Part shown: in pieces, positions 2,067-59,603 of the stretch | Layout of the letters: each line of letters starts with the position of its first letter | Position numbering within the stretch: the first letter of the stretch is position 1 | Origin: Patescibacteria group bacterium | Lineage (GTDB): Bacteria > Patescibacteriota > Saccharimonadia > Saccharimonadales > CAYUUR01 | Direction: 5' to 3' | DNA length: 59,603 nucleotides | Assembly: GCA_052034685.1 (NCBI GenBank) | Contig: JBPOIH010000007.1 | Coordinates: 79,249 to 138,851, forward strand | Made by a program: the position numbers and the translations under genes | The notes under the pieces: model-generated | What the model was told of the DNA's origin: nothing | Databases searched by the model: none | The model's input: only the letters and a program-made list of their open reading frames with translations

Positions 2067-3323
2067 TTACGCTTTCCCCAGCTTTTCTGGTGCAATCATG
2101 TCGTTATCAAGCTGTTCAAGTACTTGTTGTTCAAGCGTTTCTTCGCCCATATAACGAATAAACAATTCATTCCAGAGGCTTTCCTGGAAGTGATAATAAT
2201 ATCGGTTTTCGAAGTGTTCTTCATTTGAATAAGCAAAAGCTACATCCATCAGATTAAGCGCAATCGGCCCGGTCTTGTCTGGTCGCGCAACGTAATCCAG
2301 ATCTCGCCAAAAGGCCAGCTTCTCGTCCAGTTCATACAGTGAATCCTCTGCTCTGCGCCAGTGTAAGTCCTCTGGTTGTACGTGTGGCTGAAAGGCTTCA
2401 GGATGAGAAGTATCTTTGTGTCGACCGAGGTACTGCTGAATAACACGCCAGTGGATGTGCTGACCGGCCATAACCGCTGCATTCTTTGGGTCTGCATTAA
2501 TGGTATTCACCACGTCCACACCAAAGTGTGCGCGCGTAGAGATAAACTTGAAGAACGCGCTATACAACCGGATCTCATTTACGTAATGAAACAAGAGCGA
2601 CATCGTCTTCAGTGGTAAACCACGCATTTTCTCGCGCTGCATTGGCAATACTGCGATGATTCCCATCTCTTTGGAATGCGTTACGTTGTGGAGCTTTTTC
2701 TTAGTGAAGGCGTCTGACAGTTCAACCCACTTGTCGTGATCCATCTCAACAATTTCGATCTTACGCTCTTCAAAATCCTTTGGTTTAATCGTCTTCATCA
2801 GCTCGTTAAATTTACTGAGCCATTCTGGACCTTCGGAGAACCTGAGTCCGACGTACATTTCACTAAAAGGTTCGTGCTTAAGCATGCTGTCGATAGATCG
2901 ATAACCAAGCTGCGCCATCATCTTCTTGGGCGGCATCTTTTTTAGCATCTTTTTTGCAACAGATCGCTTCAGTGCCCAGCATTTCATCGGCACACCAGAG
3001 CCTCGCACTGTTTTGACCATCGGCGGCACGAGCGTCCTAATTACTTCTGTGCCTTCTGGGAGCTTAAGCGTGTCTGTAATAATTCGATTATTGTCTTCTC
3101 TGACACGGTTTAGAAGGGCGTAGTAGAGTTCTTTGCCAGTTGTGTCGTTCGGGTCAAGCCCCAGCTCTTTTGTCTTTAGATTAACCTGACCGACGATTTC
3201 AGCAGTTAGTCTGACATCGGCACTCGGGTTGCCACTGGCTTTTTCCAGGTCACGAATTGCCATTGTAAATAGGGGCTCTTCGGCAGTCAATAACTCTGAT
3301 AATAACCGTGACATCTTAGTCAT
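2067..3323 (-). CDS. Hypothetical protein (418 aa, soluble, no family recognised)
   Basis: Long uninterrupted ORF. Its stop lies 2 nt before the start of the LOG-like gene, so the two are probably co-transcribed. Confidence 0.65.
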   Translation of the reverse strand: MTKMSRLLSELLTAEEPLFTMAIRDLEKASGNPSADVRLTAEIVGQVNLKTKELGLDPNDTTGKELYYALLNRVREDNNRIITDTLKLPEGTEVIRTLVPPMVKTVRGSGVPMKCWALKRSVAKKMLKKMPPKKMMAQLGYRSIDSMLKHEPFSEMYVGLRFSEGPEWLSKFNELMKTIKPKDFEERKIEIVEMDHDKWVELSDAFTKKKLHNVTHSKEMGIIAVLPMQREKMRGLPLKTMSLLFHYVNEIRLYSAFFKFISTRAHFGVDVVNTINADPKNAAVMAGQHIHWRVIQQYLGRHKDTSHPEAFQPHVQPEDLHWRRAEDSLYELDEKLAFWRDLDYVARPDKTGPIALNLMDVAFAYSNEEHFENRYYYHFQESLWNELFIRYMGEETLEQQVLEQLDNDMIAPEKLGKA

Positions 3324-3368
3324 AGATTACCACAAGCGTAATAACAGCGTAAAGCAAAGTATCCGTTT

Positions 3369-4172
3369 ATGCTTGCAATACTTTTAGTTCACTATCATAG
3401 TGACAGCATTATGTTTAGGCCGAACCGAGCTATTGGTATATCAGAAAGGGCTGGCCAGAGTCTTGAGAAGTTAGCTTCCGCCCTATCGTTAAGTCGAGTT
3501 GTTGGCGGGCTTGCTGTTGCTAACCATGTTGAAAAAACGCCAAATTACCAAAGCTGGAAGTTAGCATTCACTTTTGGCGCACTGGCTGCCACTGATTTCA
3601 TTGACGGAAAGTTCGCGCGCTTTGGTAGAAAGCTCCAAGGCAAGAACGAGGAAGTCCGGCGACCCTTCAGTGCCTATGTTGATCAGTTGTCAGACAAAGT
3701 CATGATTGACGCTATTCTGGTGGCCGTCGCTAAACGCGAGGCTCAGAATGGAAACTACGTCTACTCCCAAGCTATGAGTGGCGCTGCTCTGATAGACATC
3801 GGTAGGAACATACTGGTGACACGTGACCGCATCAACGCAGACCGACAGAACATTGACTCACGTGCCCAAAAAGGAGGCAAACTTAAAGCATTAGAGCAAG
3901 ACCTCGTCGTTGGCGCCGCATTAAGCCCACTTTCAAACAATCGTGTCGGGCGCTTCATTATCGGTGTCGCTGCAGCACATGCCGAATTTGAAGCCGTTAA
4001 GAGCGGTATCGACCTTCATACATCATTCGAGGTGTCACGCAGCCAGCTGGCGACTCAAGAAGTACCGGAAACTATAGTTGAGCAACCGCAACCTTCATCG
4101 GATCAATGGTTGCATGCAGGCGCAGAATACCTGGCTTCGCACCTAGCTGAGTCACCACACTTGTTGAATTAG
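3369..4172 (+). CDS. Divergent CDP-alcohol phosphatidyltransferase-like membrane protein
   Basis: DFIDGKFAR...YVDQLSDK resembles the D-G-x2-A-R...G-x3-D-x3-D signature, but with a long insert and Ser in place of the Gly. An alternative start is ATG 3411. The 3' end overlaps the convergent pfkB gene by 101 nt. Confidence 0.45.
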   Translation: MLAILLVHYHSDSIMFRPNRAIGISERAGQSLEKLASALSLSRVVGGLAVANHVEKTPNYQSWKLAFTFGALAATDFIDGKFARFGRKLQGKNEEVRRPFSAYVDQLSDKVMIDAILVAVAKREAQNGNYVYSQAMSGAALIDIGRNILVTRDRINADRQNIDSRAQKGGKLKALEQDLVVGAALSPLSNNRVGRFIIGVAAAHAEFEAVKSGIDLHTSFEVSRSQLATQEVPETIVEQPQPSSDQWLHAGAEYLASHLAESPHLLN

Positions 4173-5046
4173 CACTCGCAAATGTCATCGCAGCTTCAAT
4201 TGAGCCGCCACTTGCAATCTTGGCCACAAAACCACTGGTAAAGGCATCGCCTGCCCCGCTCCGGTCAATCACCTTTACGTCTTTATACAAACCCGCACGA
4301 TAGATGCTCTGACCGTCGCAGGCAATTGAGCCTTTAGGCCCGTCAGTAACCAACACGAGCGGCACAATCCGCGTGGCCTTCTGTAACAGCTTCTTGGTGT
4401 CGTTCTCGGGGATCAGTTGCTGCATTTCTTCTTTGTTAACGCTCAGGATATGGCATGACTTCATGAGCTCTAGAAACTCTTTGCGGTGAGCAAGTTCACC
4501 TTTGCCAGGATTTACCGCCACACGTATACCGTGCGTCTTAGCGTAGCTAATAATACGCTTGAGGGCATCAAAATCACCGGACAGAGAACTCACATAAAAC
4601 CAGTCGGCTTCAATGCCATGAAAATGGCTATCCTTAAGATCATAATGGTTGGACGCGCCCCGGTATGTCAGGATTGTTCGCTCACCATTAGGAGCCAACA
4701 TCAGCACAGAATAACCAGTGTTATATTGCTTCGATTCCAGAACCAGCGTAGTGTCCACTTCATCCGCATGCAAAGCATCAAGCACAGCACGACCAGCTAT
4801 GTCGCGGCCAATACGACCCATATACATGCTGTGTAGACCTTGCCGGGCAAACGTCACGCTCGCATTAGTTGCACCACCACCGGTAGAAAATACGACTTCT
4901 TCTACTTCGTTTTTACTTCCCAGATTAAATTCGGCCTTCAGGCCATCGTCTTCACGTTCAGGCCTGAATATCTTACCCAGCAAAAAAACATCCTGTACGG
5001 CCGCACCAATAGACACTATCCGCGGCACCACAGCGCTCCTAGCCAT
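4072..5046 (-). CDS. pfkB-family carbohydrate kinase (ribokinase-like)
   Basis: IVSIGAAVQDVF at the N-terminus and the DRSGAGDAFTSGF signature-2 motif. Start chosen at ATG 5044-5046 (MARSAVVPRIV), because the longer ORF-track start runs deep into the aldolase gene. Confidence 0.85.
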   Translation of the reverse strand: MARSAVVPRIVSIGAAVQDVFLLGKIFRPEREDDGLKAEFNLGSKNEVEEVVFSTGGGATNASVTFARQGLHSMYMGRIGRDIAGRAVLDALHADEVDTTLVLESKQYNTGYSVLMLAPNGERTILTYRGASNHYDLKDSHFHGIEADWFYVSSLSGDFDALKRIISYAKTHGIRVAVNPGKGELAHRKEFLELMKSCHILSVNKEEMQQLIPENDTKKLLQKATRIVPLVLVTDGPKGSIACDGQSIYRAGLYKDVKVIDRSGAGDAFTSGFVAKIASGGSIEAAMTFASANSTSVVTQLGAKPGILRLHATIDPMKVAVAQL

Positions 5047-5956
5047 CCAGCTGCGCCTTGCCTTCACTGTTAAACAGCGATATCTTCTGCTCGACAACCT
5101 GCTGAACAGCATCAACCACGTCATCCATGAGTTTAACCACTGCATATTCGGTCGGGTTATCCTTGAGAGCCTTTTCAAGCGTCAACCGATACGCGATGCG
5201 CATGTCAGAATTTATGTTGATTTTGGTAACGCCAGCTTGGACTGCTTCTTTGTAATAGTGCCCTGGCGTACCGCTGCCGCCGTGCAGGCTAATGTTGCAG
5301 CTTATAGCTTTACGAATCTGCTTGAGGAGTTCGATGTCCAGGTGTTTAGGCACCGGATATTTACCATGTAAATTACCGATTGCAGCAGCAAAGGTGTCGA
5401 TGCCGGTATCTTGGACAAACTGCTGGGCAGACTCCGGAGTACTGAAGGTCTTTTTAATCTCTTGATAGTCTATCTTCTCGGTATGAAGGTTTGAACTGCC
5501 AGCAAAGTAGTGCATCTCACTCTCTACTAAGGCACCGGTAAGTCGCGCGCAAGTCACAACTCGACGGGTTGCTTCCACAATCTCAGCATCAGTAGCATCG
5601 TGGTTGGCCTGACTGATATCAATATGGATAAACTCGTAACCAGCTTCAATCCCAGCAATAGCATCTTCAACAGTCGGCGAATGATCAAGGTTGATATACA
5701 TCTCAACCCCAAACTCTTGTTTGTAGTTGTCCACCATGTCACGGACGTTCTCGTGACCTAGGGATTCTACTTCACCCTGGCTCACTTCTACCAGCACCGG
5801 AGCATTTTTGGCCTTAGCAGCCTGAACGACCGCCTTGAGCGTTTCCTGATTGTCTAGGTTGAAAGCACCGACGGCAAACTTCTGTTTGCGTGCTCGCTTC
5901 ATGAGTTCACGCGCTTGAGCAGAGTTAGCACGCATTTGTTTTAGTGATAAAGCCAT
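5039..5956 (-). CDS. fba: Class II fructose-bisphosphate aldolase
   Basis: FAVGAFNLDN, PVLVEVSQGE, NLDHS, HIDIS and SLHGGSG motifs. Start taken at MALSLKQM (ATG 5954-5956). Confidence 0.9.
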   Translation of the reverse strand: MALSLKQMRANSAQARELMKRARKQKFAVGAFNLDNQETLKAVVQAAKAKNAPVLVEVSQGEVESLGHENVRDMVDNYKQEFGVEMYINLDHSPTVEDAIAGIEAGYEFIHIDISQANHDATDAEIVEATRRVVTCARLTGALVESEMHYFAGSSNLHTEKIDYQEIKKTFSTPESAQQFVQDTGIDTFAAAIGNLHGKYPVPKHLDIELLKQIRKAISCNISLHGGSGTPGHYYKEAVQAGVTKININSDMRIAYRLTLEKALKDNPTEYAVVKLMDDVVDAVQQVVEQKISLFNSEGKAQLDG

Positions 5957-39920: not shown

Positions 39921-42095
39921 CTACTTGTCTTCTTGTGCCTCAGCAATGGCAACTTCGGTACTTTTAGCAAGCGCACGGAAAAGCTTACGCATACGTGGGA
40001 TAGTAAGCAGACGCTTAATCTCTGCGTCAGACTCGCGAGCTACCAGCAACATGATGGCGTCACGGAATGATACATCTTTTTTGGTATCTTCAGATATCAT
40101 GTTGTTTTCTCGTGCATTTACGATATGGTTCCTTCTGATACCGAACTCACTCTCAAGTTGGCGTGATGAGTAACGATCACCTGGGCCAAAGCCTACTGCC
40201 AATAGTTGATTAGCGATCCGACCAACCACCGCGCGAATATGCTGTTCTTCTAATTCTGTCTTCGACTTAGTCCTCGCCTCTGGCGCTTCAAGTGGTTCCG
40301 GGCTGGCTGGCGTGTGCTCGATGCGCTCATCACGGATATCATCATTATTTTGTTCTGTATCGGCTTCAGGCATAACTTCAGTCTCCGCTTCTGGCGTGTC
40401 GACTTGTTCTTCCTCTTCAACCGTTGCTGGTGGCGTTGCTGGTACTGCTTCAATGCTGTCTTCAATTGTCGAGCGCGGCATCTCATCGCCTTCGTCGCCG
40501 GTGTCGTACTCAACACCAACAATTGTCACGCCAGACGAGAAACTGCCGTTATCAACAATAATGCGCGTGCTCGGGTTAAAGGCAATTAATTCGCGTAACT
40601 GTGCTGTCTCTGCGTCATCCATATCCAATATTGTATCAATCAGCATTTCGCCGAGACCACCCAAGTTTTCACCATATAACTGCCCAAAGATATCTGTAAT
40701 GTTATTCTCTGCAAGATCATTCAATAATGCATCGTTCTCTGTCAAAGCAATGAGCTTATCAGCAACTTCGCTGCGCAGTGCATCGAGTGAAACATTCGAT
40801 TCAAGTCGCTTCGTGTCTTCCTCGTCAAAGTTCTCTTCAATACATTCAAGCATGCCGTCAACAATATCAAAGACAAAATGTAGCATTGAAGACTCCGGAA
40901 TTGCCTCTGACTCAGCAAAATTTGGCATCGCTGAATAAATCTTACTCAGGAACGCATACAATTCCATCTGACTCGGCATCACTTCTGCAAAGCGTTCAAC
41001 AATCTCATCGCTCACTGAATCCACTTCAGTTTCGGCTGGCTGATCAATTGGTTCTTCAACGATTTCTGTTACTACTGGAACATCTGGTTCATTATCAGCC
41101 TCGGCATCAAATGTTTCAATTGGCGCAAACGGCTTCTCAAGCGATACAGGCATAGCTTCAGGATGCTGCTCAACCTCTGGAGTAGCAACACCGAGTTCAA
41201 CCAAATGTTGCGCAAACCGCTTGACGTCGTCATCGCTTTCGGCGCCAATCACAACGTCATATTTTAGCTCCGGATTAACTTCATATGCAGATGAAAGCCC
41301 ACGCTTGTTGTTGTGTGCAAACATTTGTTGCTTACGATAAGTCAGGTTCGTTAAGAACTCACGAACGTTGCGCATCACGTCTCTATCAAAGACAGGAGCA
41401 TGCTCTACGCCAAGGACAGAGGTGAACATACGCGTCCATAGTTCGTTTACGCTAATCTGCTCCCCGTCGACTAACTCTGTTAACACAGAAAGTGCCGCAA
41501 ATTTTGGAGCAGCGTGCCGCAGGCTCGACTCTTTTGATGCCAGCTTTATGCGTCGGCTGCCAATGTAAACAGCAGGCATACCTGATGTCTCATCCATACC
41601 AAAATCGATCGCAACTGTCGGGCGCGGTTTAGCGACTTCAGCAACCGCAGGCTTAGCTGGTTGTTGATCTGCTCGGTTTATACTAGCACTGTTATATACA
41701 GCTGGCTCTGCCGTTCCACTCAAGTTCATTAATGCACGAAGAGTCAACCTTCCTGCTACCAATCTAGTCTTGGTGTCTACCTGCATGTCAATCTCATGGA
41801 GTTTGTTGTCAACATCTGTCGTAGACATTTCCAACTCAAGCAGCGTTGCACGCAGTGATTCTAGTTTTTCTACATCAGAAGTATTCTTGTTAAGATCGCT
41901 CAGCGCAGAGATTGCAGCATCATCTGGCACACTCTCTAATACGGTGTCGGCAACACCAAAGGCAGCACGTACTGCCGCTTGACCTTCGGGTGTCTCATCG
42001 TAGTCTTCAGAAAATACAATTTCAGAAAGCCGACAAGCTCGTTCAATAGATGCCGCTGCCTCAGATAAGTGTCCTTGTTGTACATGCGAGTTCAT
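39921..42095 (-). CDS. Large, strongly acidic hypothetical protein (724 aa)
   Basis: Uninterrupted 2.2-kb ORF with long D/E-rich tracts (EEEEQVDTPEAETEVMPEADTEQNNDD). Antisense ORFs on the plus strand look spurious. Confidence 0.7.
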   Translation of the reverse strand: MNSHVQQGHLSEAAASIERACRLSEIVFSEDYDETPEGQAAVRAAFGVADTVLESVPDDAAISALSDLNKNTSDVEKLESLRATLLELEMSTTDVDNKLHEIDMQVDTKTRLVAGRLTLRALMNLSGTAEPAVYNSASINRADQQPAKPAVAEVAKPRPTVAIDFGMDETSGMPAVYIGSRRIKLASKESSLRHAAPKFAALSVLTELVDGEQISVNELWTRMFTSVLGVEHAPVFDRDVMRNVREFLTNLTYRKQQMFAHNNKRGLSSAYEVNPELKYDVVIGAESDDDVKRFAQHLVELGVATPEVEQHPEAMPVSLEKPFAPIETFDAEADNEPDVPVVTEIVEEPIDQPAETEVDSVSDEIVERFAEVMPSQMELYAFLSKIYSAMPNFAESEAIPESSMLHFVFDIVDGMLECIEENFDEEDTKRLESNVSLDALRSEVADKLIALTENDALLNDLAENNITDIFGQLYGENLGGLGEMLIDTILDMDDAETAQLRELIAFNPSTRIIVDNGSFSSGVTIVGVEYDTGDEGDEMPRSTIEDSIEAVPATPPATVEEEEQVDTPEAETEVMPEADTEQNNDDIRDERIEHTPASPEPLEAPEARTKSKTELEEQHIRAVVGRIANQLLAVGFGPGDRYSSRQLESEFGIRRNHIVNARENNMISEDTKKDVSFRDAIMLLVARESDAEIKRLLTIPRMRKLFRALAKSTEVAIAEAQEDK

Positions 42096-43102: not shown

Positions 43103-43131
43103 TTGCATTTTATATATTTTTGTGCTATTAT
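43103..43131 (+). promoter_or_regulatory. Near-consensus promoter TTGCAT-17-(TGc)TATTAT placed for a leaderless transcript
   Basis: -35 at 43103-43108 and extended -10 at 43123-43131. Only 6 nt separate the -10 box from ATG 43138, and there is no SD. Confidence 0.5.
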
Positions 43132-43137
43132 ATGTGA

Positions 43138-43647
43138 ATGACCACACCTGAGTTTAGATCTCTAGGAGAAATACAAGTTCAGCCAGACGGCCAAAACCTT
43201 GTTCCTGTTGCAGTTCACCCTGTTACAGAGCTAGGTATTGTTCATGACGAAGACGGCAATTCACTACACCAAGTTACCTTTGACAGAACAGTACGGGTTG
43301 AGGAACGCTTCCAGTACGAGGGTACATGGTACCGACAATATGCATACGTACCGCAATCAGAAACTATCGTGACAGATAACTCACTTACTGCCCGCTATAT
43401 GTTAGTTGGCGATGTTGTAGTGGAGCGCAAGGCCCACGGCTCAGCGCTCATTGATGGCATGGTTGAGTTATCCGAAGAACTCGAAGAAGCACTCAACGAC
43501 TCCGATATCGACGCACGCGCGATTGCCATAAAAGCAGCGCTTGGCCACATTCAGCGTTCAGTCATAGAGAACTATCGCCCAATCGTTGACAAACAAGGTC
43601 GTTTTACGGTCAACCCAAAACCCGTCCTCGTTGGCAAAACTAATTAG
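43138..43647 (+). CDS. Hypothetical soluble protein (169 aa)
   Basis: Clean ORF behind a good promoter. No motif recognised. Confidence 0.6.
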   Translation: MTTPEFRSLGEIQVQPDGQNLVPVAVHPVTELGIVHDEDGNSLHQVTFDRTVRVEERFQYEGTWYRQYAYVPQSETIVTDNSLTARYMLVGDVVVERKAHGSALIDGMVELSEELEEALNDSDIDARAIAIKAALGHIQRSVIENYRPIVDKQGRFTVNPKPVLVGKTN

Positions 43648-43658
43648 CTTCAGGTCGC

Positions 43659-44165
43659 CTACTTCCAGCCGCCTTTGACGCGGATGCTTTTGATAATCAG
43701 CCCGTCTAGTAGCAGGTGGCTAAAGTACCCGGCCACCGCTGCACCGTATATCAGCAGACTTGTCTCGCCGACTTGCTGTGATGACAAGTACGACACCAAA
43801 ACAATCGGCAACGGAACCAAAAACATGGCAATACGGCTATGCGTCCAGCCGCGGTGCGTGCCAACTATTGGCGTCATTGCCAGTAGCCCCAATATTGCAG
43901 CTGCTGCATAGTAGCCAAATATTATAAGCAATACGTCAGCAACGAATGCTATGACAAAGAATATATCCTGCGCCTTAGAATTAGTATCAACATCTGGCCA
44001 CAGCCCAAACAGCACTGCCACCACATACACCGCTACCAGCAGCTGCCAGTCACCCGCCAGCACCGAACTGTCCGGTAAGCCCCGCCCTGGCAGTAGGTAG
44101 TAGCCAGCTGACACCACCGTGCCAGCCAGCACACCACCCACCACATGCCCTTTGTAATTTGCCAT
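43659..44165 (-). CDS. Membrane-bound metal-dependent hydrolase (YdjM/DUF457-like)
   Basis: The N-terminal KGHVVGG, GTHRGWTHS and several TM helices fit DUF457. Confidence 0.5.
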   Translation of the reverse strand: MANYKGHVVGGVLAGTVVSAGYYLLPGRGLPDSSVLAGDWQLLVAVYVVAVLFGLWPDVDTNSKAQDIFFVIAFVADVLLIIFGYYAAAAILGLLAMTPIVGTHRGWTHSRIAMFLVPLPIVLVSYLSSQQVGETSLLIYGAAVAGYFSHLLLDGLIIKSIRVKGGWK

Positions 44166-44198
44166 AAGCTTATTCTAACCGATTGTCGTCATTTCTCC

Positions 44199-44486
44199 TT
44201 AGTTAGCTGTATTATCCCAGTCACAAGTAACAGAGAACCAAGATGGTGACTCACCATAAGAACCATCACCACGTGAACTATATGCCCAGCACTCCATCTC
44301 CGTACCATCTGGCTTTGTCATGTCAAAGAACTCACCGTTTGCTTTGATTTCCTCAATTGTTGGTGGTTCTTTTTGTCCTTCGTAGGTGCTACAGCCTGCA
44401 AGCAATGCTGCCCCACCCAGACAACCAGCTACGACAGTATTACGCAGCCAATTGCTGCTTTGATTTGCTTCTATATTTTGGTACAT
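44199..44486 (-). CDS. Small lipoprotein (hypothetical)
   Basis: Lipobox ALLAGCS after a hydrophobic signal sequence. 95 aa. Confidence 0.55.
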   Translation of the reverse strand: MYQNIEANQSSNWLRNTVVAGCLGGAALLAGCSTYEGQKEPPTIEEIKANGEFFDMTKPDGTEMECWAYSSRGDGSYGESPSWFSVTCDWDNTAN

Positions 44487-44721
44487 TAAAAAGCGCCTCC
44501 TACACGCTTGAATAAGTGATTCGCCTTAGTCTGCGATTGCTTAGTCAAGACAGGAACGCTTGCTTTTTGATTGGCGTGATGTCTAGTTTTGGGACAATGC
44601 TGTTTCGGTGGTCGCCAAAGTCACTGTATGCTTACTTGCGCCCAGAATTGTAATTCCGTAATTGAGTATTATAGGACGTTTACCCCACATGTCAATGGCG
44701 CGCTATCCACATTAACCCAGG

Positions 44722-44967
44722 GTGAAAGGGATGATAATAGAACTGCTCAGGGTCAAAATGAGTTATTCATCGACATTTCAAATTCCAGAAGAAAAGTACT
44801 GGGAACCGAAGGCAATTTTAGAAGCAGAACACGGTAAAGAATTCCCAATTGAAGATGTACGAGAGATAGCTGATGAACTTGTTGGGCTATATCAGCTATT
44901 AATGCGGAGTGAGTCAAATCAGCAAATAATAACGAGAACTTCTAATTCTGTTGGTAGAAGTTTTTGA
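44722..44967 (+). CDS. Small hypothetical protein (81 aa)
   Basis: GTG-start ORF in the low-GC islet. It converges on the 209-aa gene and overlaps it by 26 nt. Confidence 0.3.
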   Translation: MKGMIIELLRVKMSYSSTFQIPEEKYWEPKAILEAEHGKEFPIEDVREIADELVGLYQLLMRSESNQQIITRTSNSVGRSF

Positions 44968-45571
44968 CGAGGAGCTTAACTGCTGGGTCGTCATATTTTT
45001 TGAATGTCCAGGAGTTGTATCTTTTCGCTACACCACTTTTCGGACCATTGTATTTGTAGTGTTCCAGTAAAACTAGCAGATCCTCATAGAATTGCCTGAC
45101 ATCGAGTTGAATCACGCAGCTTCTATTTCGAGGATCCTTATCAAGTCTCAGTAAATGATATCTCCCATCTAAGAAGCCAATGCTCCAATAAATTGATATA
45201 TTACCAGCATAAATTGAGCGAGGTTCGTCAGTATGTAGCAGAGAATGACGAAATAAGTGGGCAAGGATCGCTCCTTTACCCGAATATTCGTTACTAATTT
45301 TCGCCATGTCTACATCAATAAAAGTTTGTAGATTGTCATTATTGCTTGATCCGTGAATGAGGTCACCGATCGATTCTGCAACCGGGAAAAGCTCACGTGC
45401 CAACAGCCAGAATGGACTATAGTCCTGCGAGGAGCTTATAAGTTCCCACAATGGTTCAAGATCATGGATTAGTCGACCTTGAATCATTGAATAGGCATCG
45501 TAAGCGTTATTAACAATTCTTTGTACAGGCAATTCGCTATTCCTTATGGGCTGGAGGGGTCGGAAAGACAA
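44942..45571 (-). CDS. Hypothetical protein, partner of the nuclease-like gene
   Basis: 209-aa ORF. The start is TTG 45571 (35-nt overlap with the upstream gene) or ATG 45487. No family recognised. Confidence 0.55.
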   Translation of the reverse strand: MSFRPLQPIRNSELPVQRIVNNAYDAYSMIQGRLIHDLEPLWELISSSQDYSPFWLLARELFPVAESIGDLIHGSSNNDNLQTFIDVDMAKISNEYSGKGAILAHLFRHSLLHTDEPRSIYAGNISIYWSIGFLDGRYHLLRLDKDPRNRSCVIQLDVRQFYEDLLVLLEHYKYNGPKSGVAKRYNSWTFKKYDDPAVKLLVKNFYQQN

Positions 45572-46907
45572 CTACTTGGCCCGCGGTAGTCTCAAGTGCT
45601 TTTCTACAAGCTTCTTTGAAAGTTGTATCATCGTGGTGATCTTGGAGATAGACTGCTAGGGGGTAGAGGCTGTGCGTTGAAACCAGCGCAGTACCAAGAC
45701 GTTTTGCATTAAGTAAGCATTTTTCGGTAAATTCTACTCCGCGGCTTTCTGGGTTAGTAAGCCTAAAACCATTGCCGAATAGTATTCCCTTTGCAGGCTG
45801 AGTGACTTCCTCACGTTCAAAATCTTCGCCAATATTTGACTCTAACTGACGAAATTTAGATATGTTTATTGCAGAATTGTCCTTGCCCTCTGCCTCACCA
45901 ATCATTCTTAAATTATCGGGGCTTACTACTACATGGTCGATCTCTAAATCTCCCTCGCGGAAGTTGCCAACTTCGTATCCTAGGAGTTTCAGCGCTTTCT
46001 CAACCGCTTGCTCAAGGAGTGGACCCGTTTCGTAAAGTAGCGCCTGATAAGTAAGAGACTCGTCGATTTGCTGTATCTTGAGCTGCCGTGAGACCTTGAT
46101 CTTCTCTATTTTTGCGTCCAGGGCGTTCACTTCCTTTTTCAAACTTGAAATAAGTTCAGGCGTCTGTGCCTTATCGAGCCAGTCTGGAGCGGGCGTTGCA
46201 CTCGATTCATTACGCAACACACCATCTATCCCTACAAGCTGCTTCTTCAATGACGTTGCAAGGCCCATTCCTTGCTTAGTCCATACTTCTTCGTCCTTTG
46301 AGTTCGTCTCATAGAGTTGAGAAAGGTTGAAATATGGCAGCAACACAAGGTTACCTGGCATGTCTTTCAGCCGAACTACCGCGCCTAACGGGCTATTTCC
46401 GGTTCTAGTAACGCAAATTTTTCGTGTTTGTGTATCAGGGAGCATCGCCCGATACGAAATATGATCCTTTAGTGATTCAAGAAGCCCTGCAAACCTCGTA
46501 TCAATTACCTTAATCTTAACTCCACTCCCGTTTCTTATCTTTACGGAAAACGGCAGAGCGTCATAGTTGCTTATGGGAGTAGTATGGAATGTTCTTGAGC
46601 CTTTGCTGGAAGTTGATCCTGTAGCCCCCTGGTCTTTCTTTTCCGCGTTAAGTAGTATAAACACTGTTTTGCCATCTGCCACAGCGTCACTTAACTCTCT
46701 TCTCCAGTGTGATATTGACTCTGTTGCGCGTTTCGTTCCATCAATACTGATGCATGAACCGCCGGCTGAAAAACTTTCACGCTCATAATATGGGAGGCTT
46801 GGGTCAAAAAGTATAATGTCGTAATCCTTTAGTGAAGTACCTGAATCATAATCTAGGTAGTCGTCGTGACCAGGGACAAGTGTGTTTACTGAAATGATGG
46901 AGTTCAT
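45537..46907 (-). CDS. Hypothetical 456-aa protein: unknown N-terminal domain, coiled coil, C-terminal PD-(D/E)xK-like nuclease module
   Basis: The C-terminus LGYEVGNFREGDLEIDHVVVSPDNLRMIGEAEGKDNSAINISKFRQLESN fits a D...E-x-K plus Q-motif layout. It is preceded by the heptad-like stretch ELISSLKKEVNALDAKIEKIKVSRQLKIQQIDE. Confidence 0.65.
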   Translation of the reverse strand: MNSIISVNTLVPGHDDYLDYDSGTSLKDYDIILFDPSLPYYERESFSAGGSCISIDGTKRATESISHWRRELSDAVADGKTVFILLNAEKKDQGATGSTSSKGSRTFHTTPISNYDALPFSVKIRNGSGVKIKVIDTRFAGLLESLKDHISYRAMLPDTQTRKICVTRTGNSPLGAVVRLKDMPGNLVLLPYFNLSQLYETNSKDEEVWTKQGMGLATSLKKQLVGIDGVLRNESSATPAPDWLDKAQTPELISSLKKEVNALDAKIEKIKVSRQLKIQQIDESLTYQALLYETGPLLEQAVEKALKLLGYEVGNFREGDLEIDHVVVSPDNLRMIGEAEGKDNSAINISKFRQLESNIGEDFEREEVTQPAKGILFGNGFRLTNPESRGVEFTEKCLLNAKRLGTALVSTHSLYPLAVYLQDHHDDTTFKEACRKALETTAGQVVVFPTPPAHKE

Positions 46908-47188
46908 ACAAATAAATATAGTCCATCCACTCTGTTAAGTCGATTTTAAAATAACATAATTTTGCACTTGTCTCATTGTTATTACCAGGAGAGAAGGGAC
47001 GTAAAACTGGGGTGGCGTTAGAGATAAGGGACACTAACCAAACTTTTAACAGATCAAAAACGAAAAATAATTGTGGCTGCCCAAAAAAGAATTCGAACTT
47101 AAATGACAGAGTCGAGATATATTTGGTTCTTGCGTTGGTTTATCTACAGGGATGTTGCAGCTATAGAATCTTGATATCGCGCGGGATT

Positions 47189-53656: not shown

Positions 53657-54388
53657 CTAGGTGGAGCGGAATTTTGCACCACGTCCTGGTTGGGTAAGCA
53701 GCTTTTCGATTCGCGCTTCTATATCTATGTGGCCGGTGTCAGATGGATGCACTCCAACTGGCTCGTACCATAGGTTATTGCCGCTTGCATTACTGTAGTC
53801 GCCCCATGCAAATGATAGGTCAAAAACAGTAACGCCGGTTTAGTAGGCCACATCACGCATGCGCTGCTGGTAGTTTGTCTGCATAGTGACATCACGGCCG
53901 TTGTTTTGCTCGGGGATAACAAAGAAGACGACGTCGGCATATGCCTGAACTCGATCTACCAGCTGGTTTAGATCGACGGCAAAGGCTGTCGGGTTATTCA
54001 CATAGACGCCGTGGCTGGAGTCCTCAATGATCACAAGGTCTGGCTGTACAAGATCGAGCCACTCTCCCCAATCACCAGATGTGGAACACGTGAAGGTAAT
54101 GATGGTGTCTGAACGCTTGCCAAGATTGTGCACAACCAATCCGCCCGACTGAGCATACACGGCAATGCCAGCTAAGTAGACGGCGACCGCATTACCGGCA
54201 GCATTTGCAGCACGCACCTCAACGGTAGATGTGACTGGACTATCGATAGTTATCGTGTCGAGGCTATTATTTTGGTTCCACGTATGAGAAACGTTGGTCC
54301 AGGCACCACCATCTATTCGATACGAAAAGTTAGCCGATGATGCACCATCTACGACAAATAGATCAAAATAATCAATTGCGTCAGTCAC
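53657..54388 (-). pseudogene. SGNH/GDSL-like hydrolase frame interrupted by an in-frame TAA (53840-53842)
   Basis: The ORF-track protein ends ...RMRDVAY*. The same frame continues for 60 more codons: TGVTVFDLSFAWGDYSNASGNNLWYEPVGVHPSDTGHIDIEARIEKLL...* (TAG 53657-53659). This stretch contains the block-V-like HPSDTGH. The frame is also open upstream to 54451 with no start codon. Confidence 0.5.
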
Positions 54389-54475
54389 CTCAGAAGATTT
54401 TGTCCAGTTTTTACCGATTAAGCGCGTAAACCAAAATGGAGTATACTGTAGTTAATTCAAGGTAAGGGAGGAACT

Positions 54476-55153
54476 ATGGGCGAGTTAGTTGTTGGGTTAT
54501 TTGCAATATTAGTTGGTGCGTTGTTTTGTTTTTCAGGAAACATCATGATGCGCATACTGTTCCCGTTTATGGGATTTTTTGCAGGGTTTTCGGTTGGTGC
54601 CGCTGCAATAGCCGCAATTAGCGGTGATGGTTTCTTAGGGACAGTGCTTGGCTGGACAGCCGGTCTGTTTGTCGGTCTGCTGTTTGGGCTACTGGCGTAC
54701 TTTTTCTACGCATTTGCGATTGTATTAGCATTCGCAGGTTTGGGCTTCAGCCTCACATCGGGTCTGCTATCAATCCTACACATGGACTGGAACTGGCTAG
54801 TTGTTATCTTGGGTACCGTCGTCGGCATTATCTTCGGAATATTTGCAGTCGTGTCGAGCATGCCATTAATCGTGTTGGTAGTTGCTACCTCGTTCTTTGG
54901 TGCAGCAGTAATTATATATGGCCTTATGCTCGTTCTGAATACGGCCAGTTTAGGTGATTTCTCGAGCGGTGCTGTCTGGCAAGATATTCGTGATCGCTTT
55001 GGTCTCTACGTACTGTGGATCGGTTTAGCTGTTGCTGGGTTAATGTCGCAAACGACAAGGCTCGTAGAAGAATCGAAAAAGATGCGTGAACTCTGGGAGT
55101 CATCAGCGACGTTTGATGAATTCTTAAGCAAACAACAGCCAAAGAAACGATAG
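54476..55153 (+). CDS. Polytopic Gly/Ala/Phe-rich membrane protein (hypothetical)
   Basis: 225 aa with about 7 TM helices. GGGAGG lies upstream of the ATG. Confidence 0.6.
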   Translation: MGELVVGLFAILVGALFCFSGNIMMRILFPFMGFFAGFSVGAAAIAAISGDGFLGTVLGWTAGLFVGLLFGLLAYFFYAFAIVLAFAGLGFSLTSGLLSILHMDWNWLVVILGTVVGIIFGIFAVVSSMPLIVLVVATSFFGAAVIIYGLMLVLNTASLGDFSSGAVWQDIRDRFGLYVLWIGLAVAGLMSQTTRLVEESKKMRELWESSATFDEFLSKQQPKKR

Positions 55154-55154
55154 A

Positions 55155-55706
55155 TTAGATCTTTGTTTGAGAATGAGTGACGTAACCGGCAGCCAGTCTG
55201 TCGGTTCGTTTTTTCTCAAAACTTGATATACGCCTATCAATAAAACCTTTTGACACACCCAATTTACGGACAAGGATAGTCGTCAACCCTGCCCGGTTGG
55301 CGCCAGAGATATCCTGCAAGTAACGATCGCCAATCATAGCAACTTCTGACGGTTTGAGCTTATGACTTGCCGCGGCATGTTTGAAGTATCCCGGCATCGG
55401 TTTTGCATGGATGCCCACTGGATGAATTACACCTTTAGCGTTGAGTGATTCTTTTAGATTCTTGAGCGTTCGTCCTTTGGGACGATTGGTAGCAATGTAT
55501 ATATCGATTGACTGTTTCCTCAGGTAGGTAGTTAATTTTTTGTCGACGTCAAATGAGCCGCGGGATACAACGGTACCATCTAAGTCGATCATCACCGCCT
55601 TTATCCCTTGCTTTTTGAGTAGGTCAAAGTCTACATCGCATACAGAGTCTACGATGTAGTCGGGCTTCAGTAGCCGGTGGCCAGTATTGACAGGTTTAGC
55701 TAACAT
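55155..55706 (-). CDS. YqeG-family HAD-IIIA phosphatase
   Basis: AVMIDLDGTVV (motif I), IATNRP and MIGDRYLQDISGANRAGLTTILV. Confidence 0.75.
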   Translation of the reverse strand: MLAKPVNTGHRLLKPDYIVDSVCDVDFDLLKKQGIKAVMIDLDGTVVSRGSFDVDKKLTTYLRKQSIDIYIATNRPKGRTLKNLKESLNAKGVIHPVGIHAKPMPGYFKHAAASHKLKPSEVAMIGDRYLQDISGANRAGLTTILVRKLGVSKGFIDRRISSFEKKRTDRLAAGYVTHSQTKI

Positions 55707-55718
55707 TATGGCTTTCGC

Positions 55719-56084
55719 TTACTGTGCACTAGGTGTAGTACTAGAGGCATCTTCGAGTTGTTTCTCGAGATCGGCAATTTCTGCTGCTTGTTGGTCGACT
55801 TCTTTTTTAAGCTCAGCATTCTCTGCCTGTAAACTCGCAGCATTTTGCTGCCCCTCTTGGACTTCGTTGCCGGCCACAGCTTTTGCCTCACTCAAATCTT
55901 GTTCAAGCTCATTTACTTGTTGTTTCAGTTCTTTTTCTGCTTCACTAGTAGCAACGTTCGTTCCGTACGTATAGCCACCAAACCCACCCAATAACACTGC
56001 AATAATAACAAGCAGTATGCACACTGAACGACTGACTGTCTTCTTTTTCTTCGCGCCCGTACTATTTTCACTGTAATCCGTCAT
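55719..56084 (-). CDS. Membrane-anchored coiled-coil protein (hypothetical)
   Basis: N-terminal TM helix followed by a heptad-rich E/Q/K region. Confidence 0.55.
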   Translation of the reverse strand: MTDYSENSTGAKKKKTVSRSVCILLVIIAVLLGGFGGYTYGTNVATSEAEKELKQQVNELEQDLSEAKAVAGNEVQEGQQNAASLQAENAELKKEVDQQAAEIADLEKQLEDASSTTPSAQ

Positions 56085-56157
56085 TTCATATCCTCATTAA
56101 AGTTACACTTCTATTGTATTTGTTTTTGCTTCTATAATAAACACCTGTAATCATTCG

Positions 56158-56179
56158 TGGCTGGGATGGAGGGATTCGA
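56158..56179 (-). repeat. Exact 22-nt copy of the tRNA-Gln 3' end (att-like direct repeat)
   Basis: TGGCTGGGATGGAGGGATTCGA is identical to 59482-59503. The adjacent bases cannot complete a T-stem, so there is no tRNA body here. Confidence 0.85.
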
Positions 56180-56427
56180 CCTGCTTTCAGCAGGCCCGAA
56201 ACAACTTCTTTCAAAACCAGTTTTGAAGAGTTGATTTCCTTGCAGATTGCCATCAGGCAATCTTCACCCCGATCTTTTCTGGCGTTCGAACCGCAAACAT
56301 AGAAAAAGGTCTGTCAACAAGTCTAAAGACTCATTGTCAAACCTTTGGCTGGGGTTAAAGGACGATGTTCGAACTTTTACAGGGGTGAGTTTGCCTATTT
56401 GTGAAAAACGATTAGGAGACAATGAAA

Positions 56428-56982
56428 CTAGGAGTTCTCAACAATGTATTTAACTGCATCAAATAGCTTTGGAGCTGTGAATAAAGCGTTAGCAGAATCT
56501 ACATTTTCATTCGCTGTCTTAACAAGTATGCCACCCTTACAGCCAGCATTAATCGCTGCATCAATATCTGATTGGTTGTCACCAGCCATATATATCTGTG
56601 ACAGGTCTAAGTTAAATTCTTCTGCTGCTTGCAATAGCATTTTTGGACCTGGTTTGCGCCAGTCTGTGTTATCATCACGCTTCATTTCGCCATTCACGTA
56701 TGTTTTAAGCACATTAACTCCACTAGCAGATAAGCGCCTTAACACCTCTTCATGTATGCGCCAAAATTCTTCTTCGGTCAATCTGCCTTCTTCGATACCA
56801 GCTTGGTTGGTAATGTATATAACTGAAAAGTCGTTTTCTGCAAGATACTTAAGTGAAGAGATAGAATCGTCAAATAATTCAATTTTTTCTATTTTGTCCA
56901 CGCGTAAATCTGGTGGATCGACAATCACAGTTCCGTCTCTGTCCAATAATGCTACTTTCATAAGTGTTACATTACCATACAT
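56428..56982 (-). CDS. HAD-IIIA phosphatase (GmhB / histidinol-phosphatase-like)
   Basis: ALLDRDGTVI, YITNQAGI, WRKPGPKML and AGDNQSDIDAAINAG motifs. An alternative start is ATG 56961. Confidence 0.7.
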   Translation of the reverse strand: MYGNVTLMKVALLDRDGTVIVDPPDLRVDKIEKIELFDDSISSLKYLAENDFSVIYITNQAGIEEGRLTEEEFWRIHEEVLRRLSASGVNVLKTYVNGEMKRDDNTDWRKPGPKMLLQAAEEFNLDLSQIYMAGDNQSDIDAAINAGCKGGILVKTANENVDSANALFTAPKLFDAVKYIVENS

Positions 56983-57147
56983 TGCAGATTTAAGTCACAA
57001 TATTATACATAAGCATTATGAATAATGTGCAATATTATGGCTGCCCCTAATGGATGGAATTCGAACTTCTTACGTAGAATCATATTAGTATGAATTGTAT
57101 GAACTATATGATAGTATAAGACTAATGACTAATACAGGAGATATGAA

Positions 57148-57366
57148 ATGGATATGCCACGATTAATTGGTTCGGTAACTGTGGGTGAGCGTGGGCAGGT
57201 AGTAATACCCTCTGATGCAAGAGAATTAATGTCTATTAATGCAGGTGACAAACTTCTTGTATTTAAGGCGCCGGTAGACGGCGTACTGATTATTGCCAAA
57301 CCGGAAACTTTCGAAAAACTGCTCGCCCATCTGGAACTAAACTTACCAAAAAAGAAAGAGTCGTAA
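57148..57366 (+). CDS. AbrB/MazE/SpoVT-family DNA-binding domain protein
   Basis: VTVGERGQVVIPSDARELMSINAGDKLLVF is a SpoVT-AbrB swapped-hairpin motif. AGGAG lies upstream. Its stop is 2 nt before the ABC ATPase start. Confidence 0.7.
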   Translation: MDMPRLIGSVTVGERGQVVIPSDARELMSINAGDKLLVFKAPVDGVLIIAKPETFEKLLAHLELNLPKKKES

Positions 57367-57368
57367 TC

Positions 57369-58049
57369 ATGCATAAAGTTATCGATATAAAAAACCTACA
57401 AAAAACTTACAACGCTAGCGGCAAAAATCCGACTACCGCGCTAAGTGGAATAAATTTTGTTGTTAACGAAGGCGATTTTGTAGCAATTATGGGTCGTTCA
57501 GGCTCGGGTAAGTCCAGTTTAATGCATGTTATTGGTTTGCTCGATCAACACTTTGAGGGTGATTATTTATTGAACGGGGTTTCAGTTCGAGAGCTCAGTC
57601 AAAGCAAGCTTTCGGATCTAAGAAGTTTAGAGATTGGCTTTGTCTTTCAGCAGTTTAATCTTCTAAAGCGTCGTACAGTTTTGCAGAATGTAATGCTGCC
57701 TACGGTTTATAGACCGGCATCAGATGATATTGAACGAGCAAAAGAAGCTATCAAACGAGTTGGATTAGAAAGTCGTATTAACCACCGTACTAATGAGTTA
57801 TCAGGCGGACAAATACAGCGCGTTGCCATAGCGCGTGCATTAATGATGAAACCTAGCTTATTACTAGCAGACGAACCTACAGGTAACCTAGACACTAAAA
57901 GTGCAAACAGTATCATGCAGCTTTTTCGTGAAGTAAATCAGCAAGGTACGACAATCGTACTTATTACGCACGAAGAAGACATTGCTAAATATGCTGACCG
58001 CACTATACGAATACGTGATGGCAAAATTACCGAGGAGGCATCAAAATGA
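57369..58049 (+). CDS. MacB/LolD-type ABC ATPase (second copy)
   Basis: [17 protein letters not shown] and [11 protein letters not shown] motifs. Confidence 0.9.
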
Positions 58050-59326
58050 AAATCAGTAATCTTCTAACTGAAGCTAGCGAATCAATAATAATCAACAAAG
58101 GACGTAGTCTGCTGACCGTTCTAGGCATCGTAATAGGCATAGCGGCAGTTACAACAATAATGGGCCTAGGCGCTGGAATGGACGCAAAAATTGATAAAGA
58201 AGTGAATAAACTTGGTTCAACAAATGTGACAATTGAGTCACGCAACGCTCCAACCACTCAAGAGCTTGAAGAACTAAAAAACCCTGAACACAGAGCACCT
58301 GAAGGTGCACCAGAAAACCAGAAAAGCATAAGTACGCTCGTTGAACCGACCCTAACAGAACAAGATTTAAATTCAATAAAAGCTATCGACCAGAATCTCG
58401 TTACTGGTGTTTCGCCACTCGTAGCTACAACGGCAAAACTACAGTCAGGTGTTGGTGGCACTATTGCAGTGCAAGGTGTATCAGAGTCATATAGCAATAT
58501 TCGTAATTACGAACTTGAGTCTGGCGCCTTTTTTGACCGTGAAAGTATTACAGAGAAAAAACTGGTTATCGTACTAGGAAAAAGCATAGCAAACGATATT
58601 TTCAAAGATGTCGACCCAATAGGTAAACAGGTCAATCTTAATAATACTGACTATACAGTCGTTGGTGCGCTTGCCGAAACTGAGCCAGGTCAGTTTGATA
58701 ATCCAAATGTTCTTGTATATGTACCCTACACAAGTATCATTGAGCAGAATAAACTAAGTCAAAATTTTGGCTCAATAATTACTCAAGCAATTGATGATGA
58801 ATCTGTAGAAGAGGTCAAAACACTTGTTGAAGAAATCCTATTAGCTAACCATGGCTACAGCAATACTGACGAGGCTGATTTTACAGTCAAGAGCTCTGCT
58901 GAAGTGCTAGGATCCATTACTGATTTGACTGATTTGTTTCGTAAGATTCTAATGATAAGCGCTGCAATTTCATTACTAGTAGGCGGTATTGGCATCATGA
59001 ACATCATGCTAGTCAGCGTGACCGAGCGCACCCGCGAGATAGGACTCCGGAAGGCTGTAGGTGCAAAAACACGCCATATTATGATGCAGTTTCTCACTGA
59101 AGCCATCGTATTAACAATTCTCGGTGGGATACTTGGTATAGTGTTAGGTTACATAATGGCAACTGGTCTAACGAAAGCCATGGACTTGGACATCGTTCCG
59201 TCTATGACTATTGAGACAATTGCTGTTACGGCTGGTATTTCAATCGCCGTTGGATTGATATTTGGTACATACCCCGCTCATAAGGCTGCCAAACTTGACC
59301 CAATTGACGCCCTTCGTTACGAATAA
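58046..59326 (+). CDS. MacB/FtsX-type ABC permease (second copy)
   Basis: Same architecture as 20380..21669 and the same C-terminus, ERTREIGLRKAVG...LDPIDALRYE. 4-nt overlap with the ATPase gene. Confidence 0.85.
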   Translation: MKISNLLTEASESIIINKGRSLLTVLGIVIGIAAVTTIMGLGAGMDAKIDKEVNKLGSTNVTIESRNAPTTQELEELKNPEHRAPEGAPENQKSISTLVEPTLTEQDLNSIKAIDQNLVTGVSPLVATTAKLQSGVGGTIAVQGVSESYSNIRNYELESGAFFDRESITEKKLVIVLGKSIANDIFKDVDPIGKQVNLNNTDYTVVGALAETEPGQFDNPNVLVYVPYTSIIEQNKLSQNFGSIITQAIDDESVEEVKTLVEEILLANHGYSNTDEADFTVKSSAEVLGSITDLTDLFRKILMISAAISLLVGGIGIMNIMLVSVTERTREIGLRKAVGAKTRHIMMQFLTEAIVLTILGGILGIVLGYIMATGLTKAMDLDIVPSMTIETIAVTAGISIAVGLIFGTYPAHKAAKLDPIDALRYE

Positions 59327-59481
59327 GCAAAGACTAATTTTAGTTAAAGAAGTAAAAATAATTAATGGGAGATAGGATTCGAACTATTTAACAGATTAGA
59401 ATAATTAATATTTCAAAAATATAGAATTAAAAATTCACAACAACAGGGGTCAAAGTTTGAACAGTATAGTTAAATTTCACT

Positions 59482-59555
59482 TGGCTGGGATGGAGGGATT
59501 CGAACCCCCGATCACGGGACCAGAACCCGGTGCCTTACCACTTGGCCACATCCCA
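59482..59555 (-). tRNA. tRNA-Gln (anticodon CUG), CCA encoded
   Basis: The reverse complement folds as TGGGATG-TG-GCCAAGTGGTAAGGC-A-CCGGG-TTCTGGT-CCCGT-GATC-GGGGG-TTCGAAT-CCCTC-CATCCCA-G-CCA. It is collinear with E. coli tRNA-Gln (U1-A72 pair, G73). There is one C-U mismatch at 27:43. Confidence 0.85.
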
Positions 59556-59603
59556 TTACTGGATTAGAACACGGGAATTATAGCGCAGAATTTGTGTTTT
59601 GTC

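Follow-up and report, generated by a model that had tools for sequence, protein, structure and literature searches.

The 59,603-nt stretch analysed here (hereafter the window), taken from contig JBPOIH010000007.1 of a Patescibacteria group bacterium, holds between a gene for a 311-aa protein and ydjM a segment of low guanine-cytosine (GC) content, which raises the question of what its genes do and whether they act together. An earlier note, made from the sequence alone, described this segment as an overlapping two-gene cassette built around a PD-(D/E)xK-like nuclease, and considered it a candidate defence or conflict system. The three open reading frames (ORFs) on which that description was based, of 456, 209, and 81 aa, do exist (Table 1). 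The explanation that we favour, with moderate confidence, is that the 456-aa protein is a stand-alone, single-gene sensor-nuclease and a candidate for defence directed against foreign DNA. The gene that follows it is treated here as independent cargo carried by mobile elements, a separate passenger and not a partner of the nuclease.

The AlphaFold2 model of the 456-aa protein, obtained with a 36-sequence alignment (mean predicted local distance difference test score, pLDDT, 91.5), contains an N-terminal alpha/beta domain, a long helix, and a C-terminal nuclease domain, the last modelled with pLDDT of 92-97 (aa 295-440). The key residues of the nuclease domain are E299, D324, E338-x-E340-G-K342, K351, and Q354. 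In 100 family sequences, down to 30% identity, D324, G337, E338, E340, G341, K351, and Q354 are invariant, the position of K342 is occupied by either K or R, and conservation within the family is highest in the D...ExK...Q stretch. In the model, D324 lies within strand 321-328, and E338, E340, G341, and K342 are placed at the end of strand 334-341. Both hallmarks of the PD-(D/E)xK superfamily are present, that is, the core fold and an acidic residue on strand 2 together with the (D/E)xK triad on strand 3. Because the catalytic residues are invariant over such a range of identity, the active site is under selection. The best Foldseek match in the PDB was FokI (2fok_A, 195 columns, E 1.7e-3, probability 1.00), followed by NucS (2vld/5gke), HindIII (2e52), XisH (2inb), Card1 (6xl1), VRR_NUC (4qbn), and Hjc (4tkd); the top matches were all restriction-fold nucleases, with probabilities of 0.6-1.0. 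The matches of the domain in the BFVD library of viral structures were likewise restriction endonucleases or Mrr-like proteins. The sole Pfam nuclease family touched by any member was Mrr_cat, weakly and in three of the 100 sequences (E at best 0.0028). According to the model, the C-terminus of the 456-aa protein forms an intact PD-(D/E)xK nuclease domain, closest to the FokI cleavage domain, and the D...(D/E)xK plus Q layout recognised in the earlier note is borne out by both the conservation and the structural matches.

The similarity to FokI concerns the C-terminal ~200 residues, where both proteins have PD-(D/E)xK cores, at a sequence identity of 12-14%; the N-terminal part of the window protein, in contrast, does not correspond to FokI's winged-helix recognition domain. 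The FokI cleavage domain must dimerise to cut both DNA strands. The single predicted helix of 42 residues (aa 251-292), which comes after an invariant TPxPxW linker (P241, W243) and corresponds to the heptad-like stretch that had been noticed in the sequence, fits this need for dimerisation, and weak coiled-coil Pfam matches occur in some family members.

The N-terminal domain (aa 1-235) is harder to place. It has a near-invariant S25-L26-x-D28-x-D30 motif as well as near-invariant G49, W68, G79, P119, G129, G185, and P191, and it is conserved across the family, unlike specificity domains, which diverge. No Pfam match, no confident structural neighbour in Foldseek, and no match in sequence or profile searches of the PDB was obtained for it; the latter, run with 1, 36, and 118 sequences, gave chance matches only (E ~1 or worse). 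MenB (crotonase), PhzE, and a levan utilisome chain were considered as relatives and rejected for low probability or high root-mean-square deviation. We propose that this domain is a sensor or regulatory module.

Relatives of the 456-aa protein are numerous. A word-indexed search gave at least 520 full-length relatives with 45-62% identity, the named sources of which include Phenylobacterium, Mesorhizobium, Aurantimonas, Brevundimonas, Pelagibius, and Mycobacterium; every one of them is labelled as hypothetical. An exhaustive search returned 1170 representatives of 50%-identity clusters at E<=1e-3 (355 at E<=1e-30), nearly all of ~460 aa and matching end to end. Furthermore, seven clinical Enterobacter IncF plasmids, six of them typed as conjugative, encode a 33%-identical member (WP_049126869.1, "hypothetical protein"). 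In one of these, plasmid NZ_CP103495.1 of Enterobacter hormaechei (L100:7947-9287), the gene adjoins a tyrosine recombinase, IS3 and IS21 transposases, and a GNAT/DUF1778 toxin-antitoxin pair. In E. coli genomes, no homologue of the gene was found at the DNA level. The uniform length of ~460 aa across Alphaproteobacteria, Mycobacterium, Enterobacter plasmids, and the genome studied here, with identities to the window protein of only 45-62%, indicates the horizontal spread of an intact unit. These data show a family that is large, widespread, unnamed, and horizontally transferred, and whose members always occur as a single gene. The earlier note could not assign the protein to a named family, and neither could we: the 456-aa protein has no significant match to a Pfam, NCBIfam, PADLOC (2023 release), or PHROG family, and a literature search by accession and by terms for FokI-like defence found no description of it. 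Weak matches to DUF6584, NshR/TsnR, PDC-S01, UPF0180, and DUF3965 were rejected as noise, as were the matches of single members to ThsB (TIR-like) and Aga_SIR2, since no TIR or SIR2 structures were among the Foldseek matches. One family copy, in a metagenome-assembled genome of Hyphomicrobiaceae (L001:8001-9356), is split by an in-frame stop into ORFs of 241 and 206 aa in the same frame, being either a pseudogene or a sequencing error.

The position of the gene in the genome was clarified by the comparison (blastn) of the window with a 5.5-kb metagenomic contig of a sister strain (L099). Positions 48-1095 of this contig correspond to 48234-47187 of the window with 95% DNA identity, positions 3299-5501 correspond to 44183-41979 with 92% identity, and the homologue of the 311-aa neighbour encoded there is 97% identical. 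Between these flanks, 2203 bp in the sister contig are substituted for the 3003 bp of 44184-47186, and reading of the junctions showed that the sequences diverge immediately past the stop codon that ends the 311-aa gene and become alike again ~20 bp before the start of ydjM. The sister insert encodes (L099:1181-3190) an endonuclease of the RE_Eco47II family (229 aa) and a MerR-fused C5 DNA methylase (438 aa). The site between the 311-aa gene and ydjM is therefore a swappable, variable cargo slot, since a sister with 92-95% identical flanks holds there an Eco47II-type restriction endonuclease and a C5 methylase. A more distant relative (L098, with metK and ydjM ~85% identical in DNA) has ydjM and a 169-aa gene in a different order relative to the 311-aa gene (L098:6251-8559 compared with window 43103-44177), and its variable region contains two other small genes, of 160 and 166 aa. 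A slot that differs between near-identical strains would help in typing strains and in the search for additional cargo.

The composition of the islet is also atypical. Its GC content is 43.0% compared with 47.0% in the whole window, which places it, among 3-kb windows (standard deviation of GC 1.9%), in the lowest 4.2% for GC and in the top 2.3% for tetranucleotide distance, while the flanking 311-aa gene, metK, and ydjM have 50-53%. The insert in the sister contig shows a comparable difference (41.2% vs 48.6% in its flanks). In this respect, the lower-GC islet of the earlier note stands (42.8% over its span of 44487-47188), but the value of 40-42% that was given there for 45.2-46.5 kb does not, as the GC content of 45200-46500 is 45.0%. 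In the sister strain, a type II restriction-modification (RM) pair occupies exactly the same place, and the data support the view of the islet as horizontally acquired, compositionally atypical cargo. When it is delimited by the borders of the sister contig, the 95-aa lipoprotein gene also falls inside it. Low GC content is not diagnostic of defence, because the only stretch that is lower still, and the lowest of the window (54200-59603, 39-43%), which ends at tRNA-Gln (59482-59555), carries genes for two HAD-type hydrolases, for a MacB-type ABC transporter pair, and for a TM7S3/TM198-like membrane protein, and showed neither defence nor integrase genes.

For the analysis of genomic neighbourhoods, 97 loci of the nuclease family were fetched, ORFs were called, and the family proteins were dereplicated at 90% identity to 68 loci, of which 29 represent subfamily A, that of the window protein (at least 43% identity), and 39 the more distant subfamily B (35-43%). 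Members of subfamily A are singletons with unrelated neighbours, and a conserved upstream or downstream partner was looked for and not found. Among the contexts seen were a type I RM system, HNH, and two methylases (L011/L017), SMODS and S_4TM of a cyclic oligonucleotide-based antiphage signalling system (CBASS; L014), a UvrD-type helicase (L013), and Fic, BrnA, and DUF5677 (L004). The gene of subfamily B usually closes an operon of genes on one strand, the gaps being 2-60 nt. In eight of the dereplicated loci (e.g., L054:497-4052, L062:2358-6646, L074:6112-9389, and L095:427-4080), an EcoRI-like adenine methylase and a DUF262(GmrSD_N)-HNH type II restriction endonuclease precede the family gene with gaps of 20-60 nt, and the DUF262-HNH enzyme matches the PADLOC type II endonuclease model end to end (E down to 1e-137). 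Two further loci (L057:2075-7726 and L061:5590-9392) contain, with 2-nt gaps, a helix-turn-helix (HTH) regulator, a type III-like Mod (581 aa), a Res helicase (762-798 aa), and the family gene. Since this Res carries its own PD...DTK nuclease motif, the type III system is complete without the family gene, and the idea that the latter supplies a missing nuclease was rejected. In other subfamily B loci, a lone methylase precedes the family gene. The commonest Pfam families among 150 neighbouring proteins were HNH (8), Recombinase (6), Resolvase (5), ResIII (5), EcoRI_methylase (4), and GmrSD_N (4). ORFs of at least 150 aa with an amino-methylase motif were present within 3 kb in 13 of the 68 dereplicated loci, compared with none among 87 ORFs lying more than 4.5 kb away. 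The family is recurrently linked, physically, to RM systems and to the recombinases of mobile elements.

How might such a protein work? According to the explanation favoured here, the 456-aa protein would dimerise through the 42-residue helix, through its FokI-like catalytic domains, or through both, and the conserved 235-aa N-terminal domain would keep the nuclease silent until a feature of invading DNA or of infection is recognised. Candidate triggers include a modified or unprotected state of DNA, DNA ends, or a product of a phage or plasmid. The paired PD-(D/E)xK sites (D324, E338, E340, K342) would then cut DNA. Such a protein would represent a one-gene defence of the type-IV-restriction-like or sensor-nuclease kind, independent of a cognate methylase, and would often be stacked with, or co-transcribed behind, ordinary RM systems. 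The 196-aa gene and the 95-aa lipoprotein gene would be separate cargo, co-located and probably co-transcribed in this lineage only. Dimerisation, the sensor role of the N-terminal domain, DNA as the substrate, and the defence phenotype are what we infer from the data presented above.

Among the known systems, type IV enzymes (Mrr, MspJI-like) provide a close parallel. They are likewise solitary nucleases without a methylase, in which a conserved non-catalytic domain is fused to a restriction-fold nuclease, and the gene of the family described here is also often found beside ordinary RM systems. They differ in that no SRA, EVE, YTH, or winged-helix reader was detected in the 456-aa protein, and the PADLOC mREase_IV models matched neither this protein nor 36 of its relatives; the N-terminal domain may still be a reader of a new type. 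What defines type IV enzymes is cleavage that depends on DNA modification. Shedu (SduA) is similar in its single gene, N-terminal sensing or regulatory region, C-terminal PD-(D/E)xK nuclease, and defence-island setting. The N-terminal sensor domains of Shedu are, however, variable, whereas that of the present family is conserved, and the Shedu likeness suggested in the earlier note does not extend to membership: no match to DUF4263 (PF14082) or SduA was obtained for the window protein (Pfam E<=0.1, PADLOC E<=1), for 36 relatives (PADLOC), or for 100 relatives (Pfam). Membership of a type II or IIS RM system was rejected, as there is no PADLOC REase_II match, and a scan of all window ORFs of at least 150 aa revealed no (D/N/S)PP(Y/F/W/H) or C5-methylase motif, which makes the window copy solitary. 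Most loci of the family have no adjacent methylase either, and where one is adjacent, a separate complete restriction endonuclease is also present.

The mandatory proteins of the methylation-associated defence system (MADS) are MAD6, MAD7, and MAD8. Among the 150 neighbouring proteins, PADLOC models mad2 (5), mad3 (2), and mad8 (2) were in the 25 most frequent of 392 matched families and mad6 and mad7 were not, and the nuclease family itself matched no mad model. MAD1, MAD2, and MAD5 have been treated as accessory, being homologous to parts of RM systems (bioRxiv 10.1101/2023.03.30.534895). The mad2, mad3, and mad8 matches were attributed to generic RM-type components and are not counted as a sign of MADS.

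Several observations weigh against a defence nuclease. The Foldseek E-values of the nuclease domain are marginal (~2e-3), although the matches agree with each other. No curated defence model is matched, with the reservation that the PADLOC release is that of 2023 and the family may have been described later. The best PADLOC match is PDC-S01, in which aa 258-336 (the helix and the start of the nuclease domain) align with model positions 273-353 of 412; it is not significant (E 0.044 for the window protein and 0.0015 for the best relative) and is shared by two of 36 relatives. No ligand- or DNA-binding relative of the N-terminal domain was found, and the trigger is a guess. In the genomic contexts, the linkage to RM systems concerns a minority of loci, mostly in the distant subfamily B, and the eight loci with type II linkage are rather close relatives of one another, with family proteins that are 73-100% identical. 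In several loci of subfamily A (L101, L102, and L009), the gene stands alone, surrounded by genes of metabolism or housekeeping and with no defence gene nearby. The neighbouring ORFs were called by a simple longest-ORF routine. With these points considered, the nuclease family is a credible and widespread defence candidate, but one of many such candidates. In a bolder form, which we put forward as a tentative possibility, the family (more than 1000 clusters at 50% identity, from several phyla and from clinical Enterobacter plasmids) would constitute a new and widespread kind of immune nuclease encoded by a single gene, in which an undescribed sensor fold gates a FokI-like dimeric nuclease. In one subfamily, this gene would have been recruited repeatedly behind complete type II and type III RM operons, and its third-gene position there hints at a functional coupling of classical restriction with a second-line nuclease. 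If the protein is a defence nuclease, it would be a common unannotated immune element, invisible to Pfam, NCBIfam, and PADLOC 2023, with a new conserved sensor-type domain, the ligand of which could reveal a new mode of infection recognition. Its recurrent last-gene position in complete RM operons is a testable case of layered or cooperative immunity. The homologue on Enterobacter IncF plasmids is close to laboratory hosts and could serve as an experimental model.

The first alternative is that the family is an accessory module of RM systems, serving as a back-up nuclease or processing DNA cut by them, with solitary copies being remnants or relying on an RM system elsewhere in the genome. The tight same-strand linkage behind complete type II and type III operons in subfamily B speaks for it, as do the PD...DTK motif of Res, which makes the family gene an add-on and not a missing part, and the slot of the window copy, which holds an RM system in the sister strain. 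Most loci, however, including all nine Pfam-labelled contexts of subfamily A, lack a co-oriented RM operon. Moreover, the RM systems to which the gene is linked belong to unrelated types, and this speaks against a partnership that is specific and physical. Family proteins that are at least 90% identical are encoded behind the methylase and DUF262-HNH pair in one locus (L092:787-2160) but behind an EamA transporter gene in another (L089:1281-2675), which indicates that the nuclease gene moved recently and on its own. Together with the solitary state of the window copy, these data make a dedicated RM accessory unlikely.

Still less probable, in our view, is a selfish or element-serving nuclease, either a free-standing homing-type enzyme or one used in the competition or maintenance of plasmids and integrative elements. 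It would account for a single gene in many unrelated intergenic positions, often adjoining serine or tyrosine recombinases (large serine recombinases adjoin six family loci) or insertion sequences, and for its presence on conjugative Enterobacter plasmids. On the other hand, the family is nearly absent from phage sets, with members in none of 50,697 GenBank phage records and in two of 2.9 million IMG/VR contigs, and none was seen inside introns or inteins. The N-terminal domain is strongly conserved, unlike the fast-diverging recognition domains of homing enzymes. At the borders of the islet, no target-site duplications and no notable direct repeats were found, the repeat search giving only short repeats at chance level.

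The cassette proposed in the earlier note would imply that the 456-aa nuclease and the second protein form one interdependent two-component system, of the sensor/effector or toxin/immunity type. The arrangement of the two genes needs first to be corrected. An AAGGAA-N7-TTG sequence places a start at 45532, which is codon 14 of the 209-aa ORF and is separated by 4 nt from the TAG that ends the nuclease gene. With the 209-aa protein as the query, 24 proteins were returned, its own database copy included, so the protein is not the orphan it was thought to be, and the N-termini of the 23 others align with codon 14. With this likely start, the second gene does not overlap the nuclease gene; the overlap is probably an artefact of choosing the longest ORF. 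In this genome, the two genes are, judging from their arrangement, almost certainly co-transcribed.

This spacing behind AAGGAA and the location of both genes in the swapped segment are in line with a two-component system, and the small protein has an invariant motif (R108-H109-S110-x-x-H113-x-D115, or R-H-S-x-x-H...D-E) that could be catalytic. The AlphaFold2 model of the second protein (pLDDT 84.4) consists of helices and a four-stranded sheet (aa 119-157) and had no Foldseek match in the PDB better than E 0.3; the protein has no significant Pfam, NCBIfam, PADLOC, or PHROG match. The R-x4-6-H motif of HEPN proteins, weak when taken alone, is present in it, with R, H, S, and H invariant in the 24 sequences, but a HEPN ribonuclease was rejected, given the four-stranded sheet and the lack of a HEPN match in Pfam or PADLOC. 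Co-occurrence data largely refute the two-component proposal already. In ~90 loci of the nuclease family, there is neither a homologue of the 209-aa protein nor a conserved downstream partner, and, conversely, the neighbourhoods read for the 209-aa homologues (five proteins in four loci, L005-L008, representing three distinct contexts) contain no member of the nuclease family, so that the two families were never found adjacent in these loci, and no similarity of those neighbours to the window was found. Two of the loci (L005:3024-9609 and L006) are copies of one compact element with an HTH regulator, an FtsK/SpoIIIE-like protein, and a 514-aa large serine recombinase, in which the 209-aa homologue sits between the FtsK-like gene and the recombinase; it has the look of a small integrative element, possibly a conjugative one. 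The family sizes differ more than 20-fold (24 vs at least 520 proteins), and the two genes also differ in GC content (45.1% for the 456-aa gene vs 40.6% for the 209-aa gene). Behind the closest nuclease homologue among the matches listed (62% identity) lies a DUF5677-like gene that is unrelated to the 209-aa family (hhalign probability of 0.3%). An interdependent pair is thus improbable.

The weakest alternative, a housekeeping DNA-repair nuclease analogous to NucS/EndoMS or to a Holliday-junction resolvase, can draw on the presence of NucS/EndoMS (the second-best structural match, also two-domain with a C-terminal PD-(D/E)xK core) and Hjc among the C-terminal matches, yet it is very improbable, as these matches span 84-111 core columns, the N-terminal domain bears no relation to its NucS counterpart, and, whereas NucS is a conserved chromosomal repair gene product of ~230-250 aa, the family described here is twice as long, mobile, patchily distributed across phyla with signs of transfer, set in variable neighbourhoods, and missing from the sister contig, the flanks of which are 92-95% identical.

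Table 1. Features of the variable islet, in window coordinates
Feature	Coordinates	Strand	Basis or remark
Variable islet	44184..47186	.	3003 bp, from the stop codon of the 311-aa gene to ~20 bp upstream of ydjM
456-aa protein: N-terminal alpha/beta domain, long helix, and FokI-like PD-(D/E)xK nuclease domain	45537..46907	-	ORF, AlphaFold2 model
N-terminal mixed alpha/beta domain, aa 1-235	46203..46907	-	Model secondary structure, conservation
Single long helix, aa 251-292	46032..46157	-	DSSP on model; proposed dimerisation stalk
PD-(D/E)xK nuclease domain, aa 295-440	45588..46025	-	Foldseek, conservation
Second gene, probably 196 aa from TTG 45532	44942..45532	-	Longest ORF, 44942..45571, is 209 aa
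81-aa GTG-initiated ORF	44722..44967	+	Convergent with the 196-aa gene, overlaps its 3' end by 26 nt
Sigma-70-type consensus TTGACA-16-TATAAT, perfect (12/12)	44668..44695	-	Faces the lipoprotein gene
95-aa predicted lipoprotein, signal peptide then LAGCS	44199..44486	-	ORF translation; absent from the sister contig
AT-rich leader upstream of the 456-aa gene	46908..47186	.	36.7% GC (measured over 46908-47188)

The remaining features of the islet are minor. The AT-rich spacer of 280 bp noted upstream of the nuclease gene was confirmed, and a weak promoter-like site is present in it (46943-46915, minus strand). The tRNA-3'-end-like fragment reported at 47074-47098 was not recovered, as neither ARAGORN nor Rfam (E<=1) gave a tRNA or another element in the leader. 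For the 81-aa ORF, searches of Pfam, NCBIfam, PADLOC, and PHROG gave no match, loci L001-L015 and L098-L099 contain none, and there is no support for it as a gene. The sigma-70-type site is a consensus match only, one of nine such sites in a region for which 6.1 are expected. The 95-aa predicted lipoprotein has no Pfam match and a weak match to PHROG 3641 (E 0.0011), and might be a surface or exclusion factor. A few genes away from the islet, at 39921-42095, the window encodes a very acidic, low-complexity protein of 724 aa.

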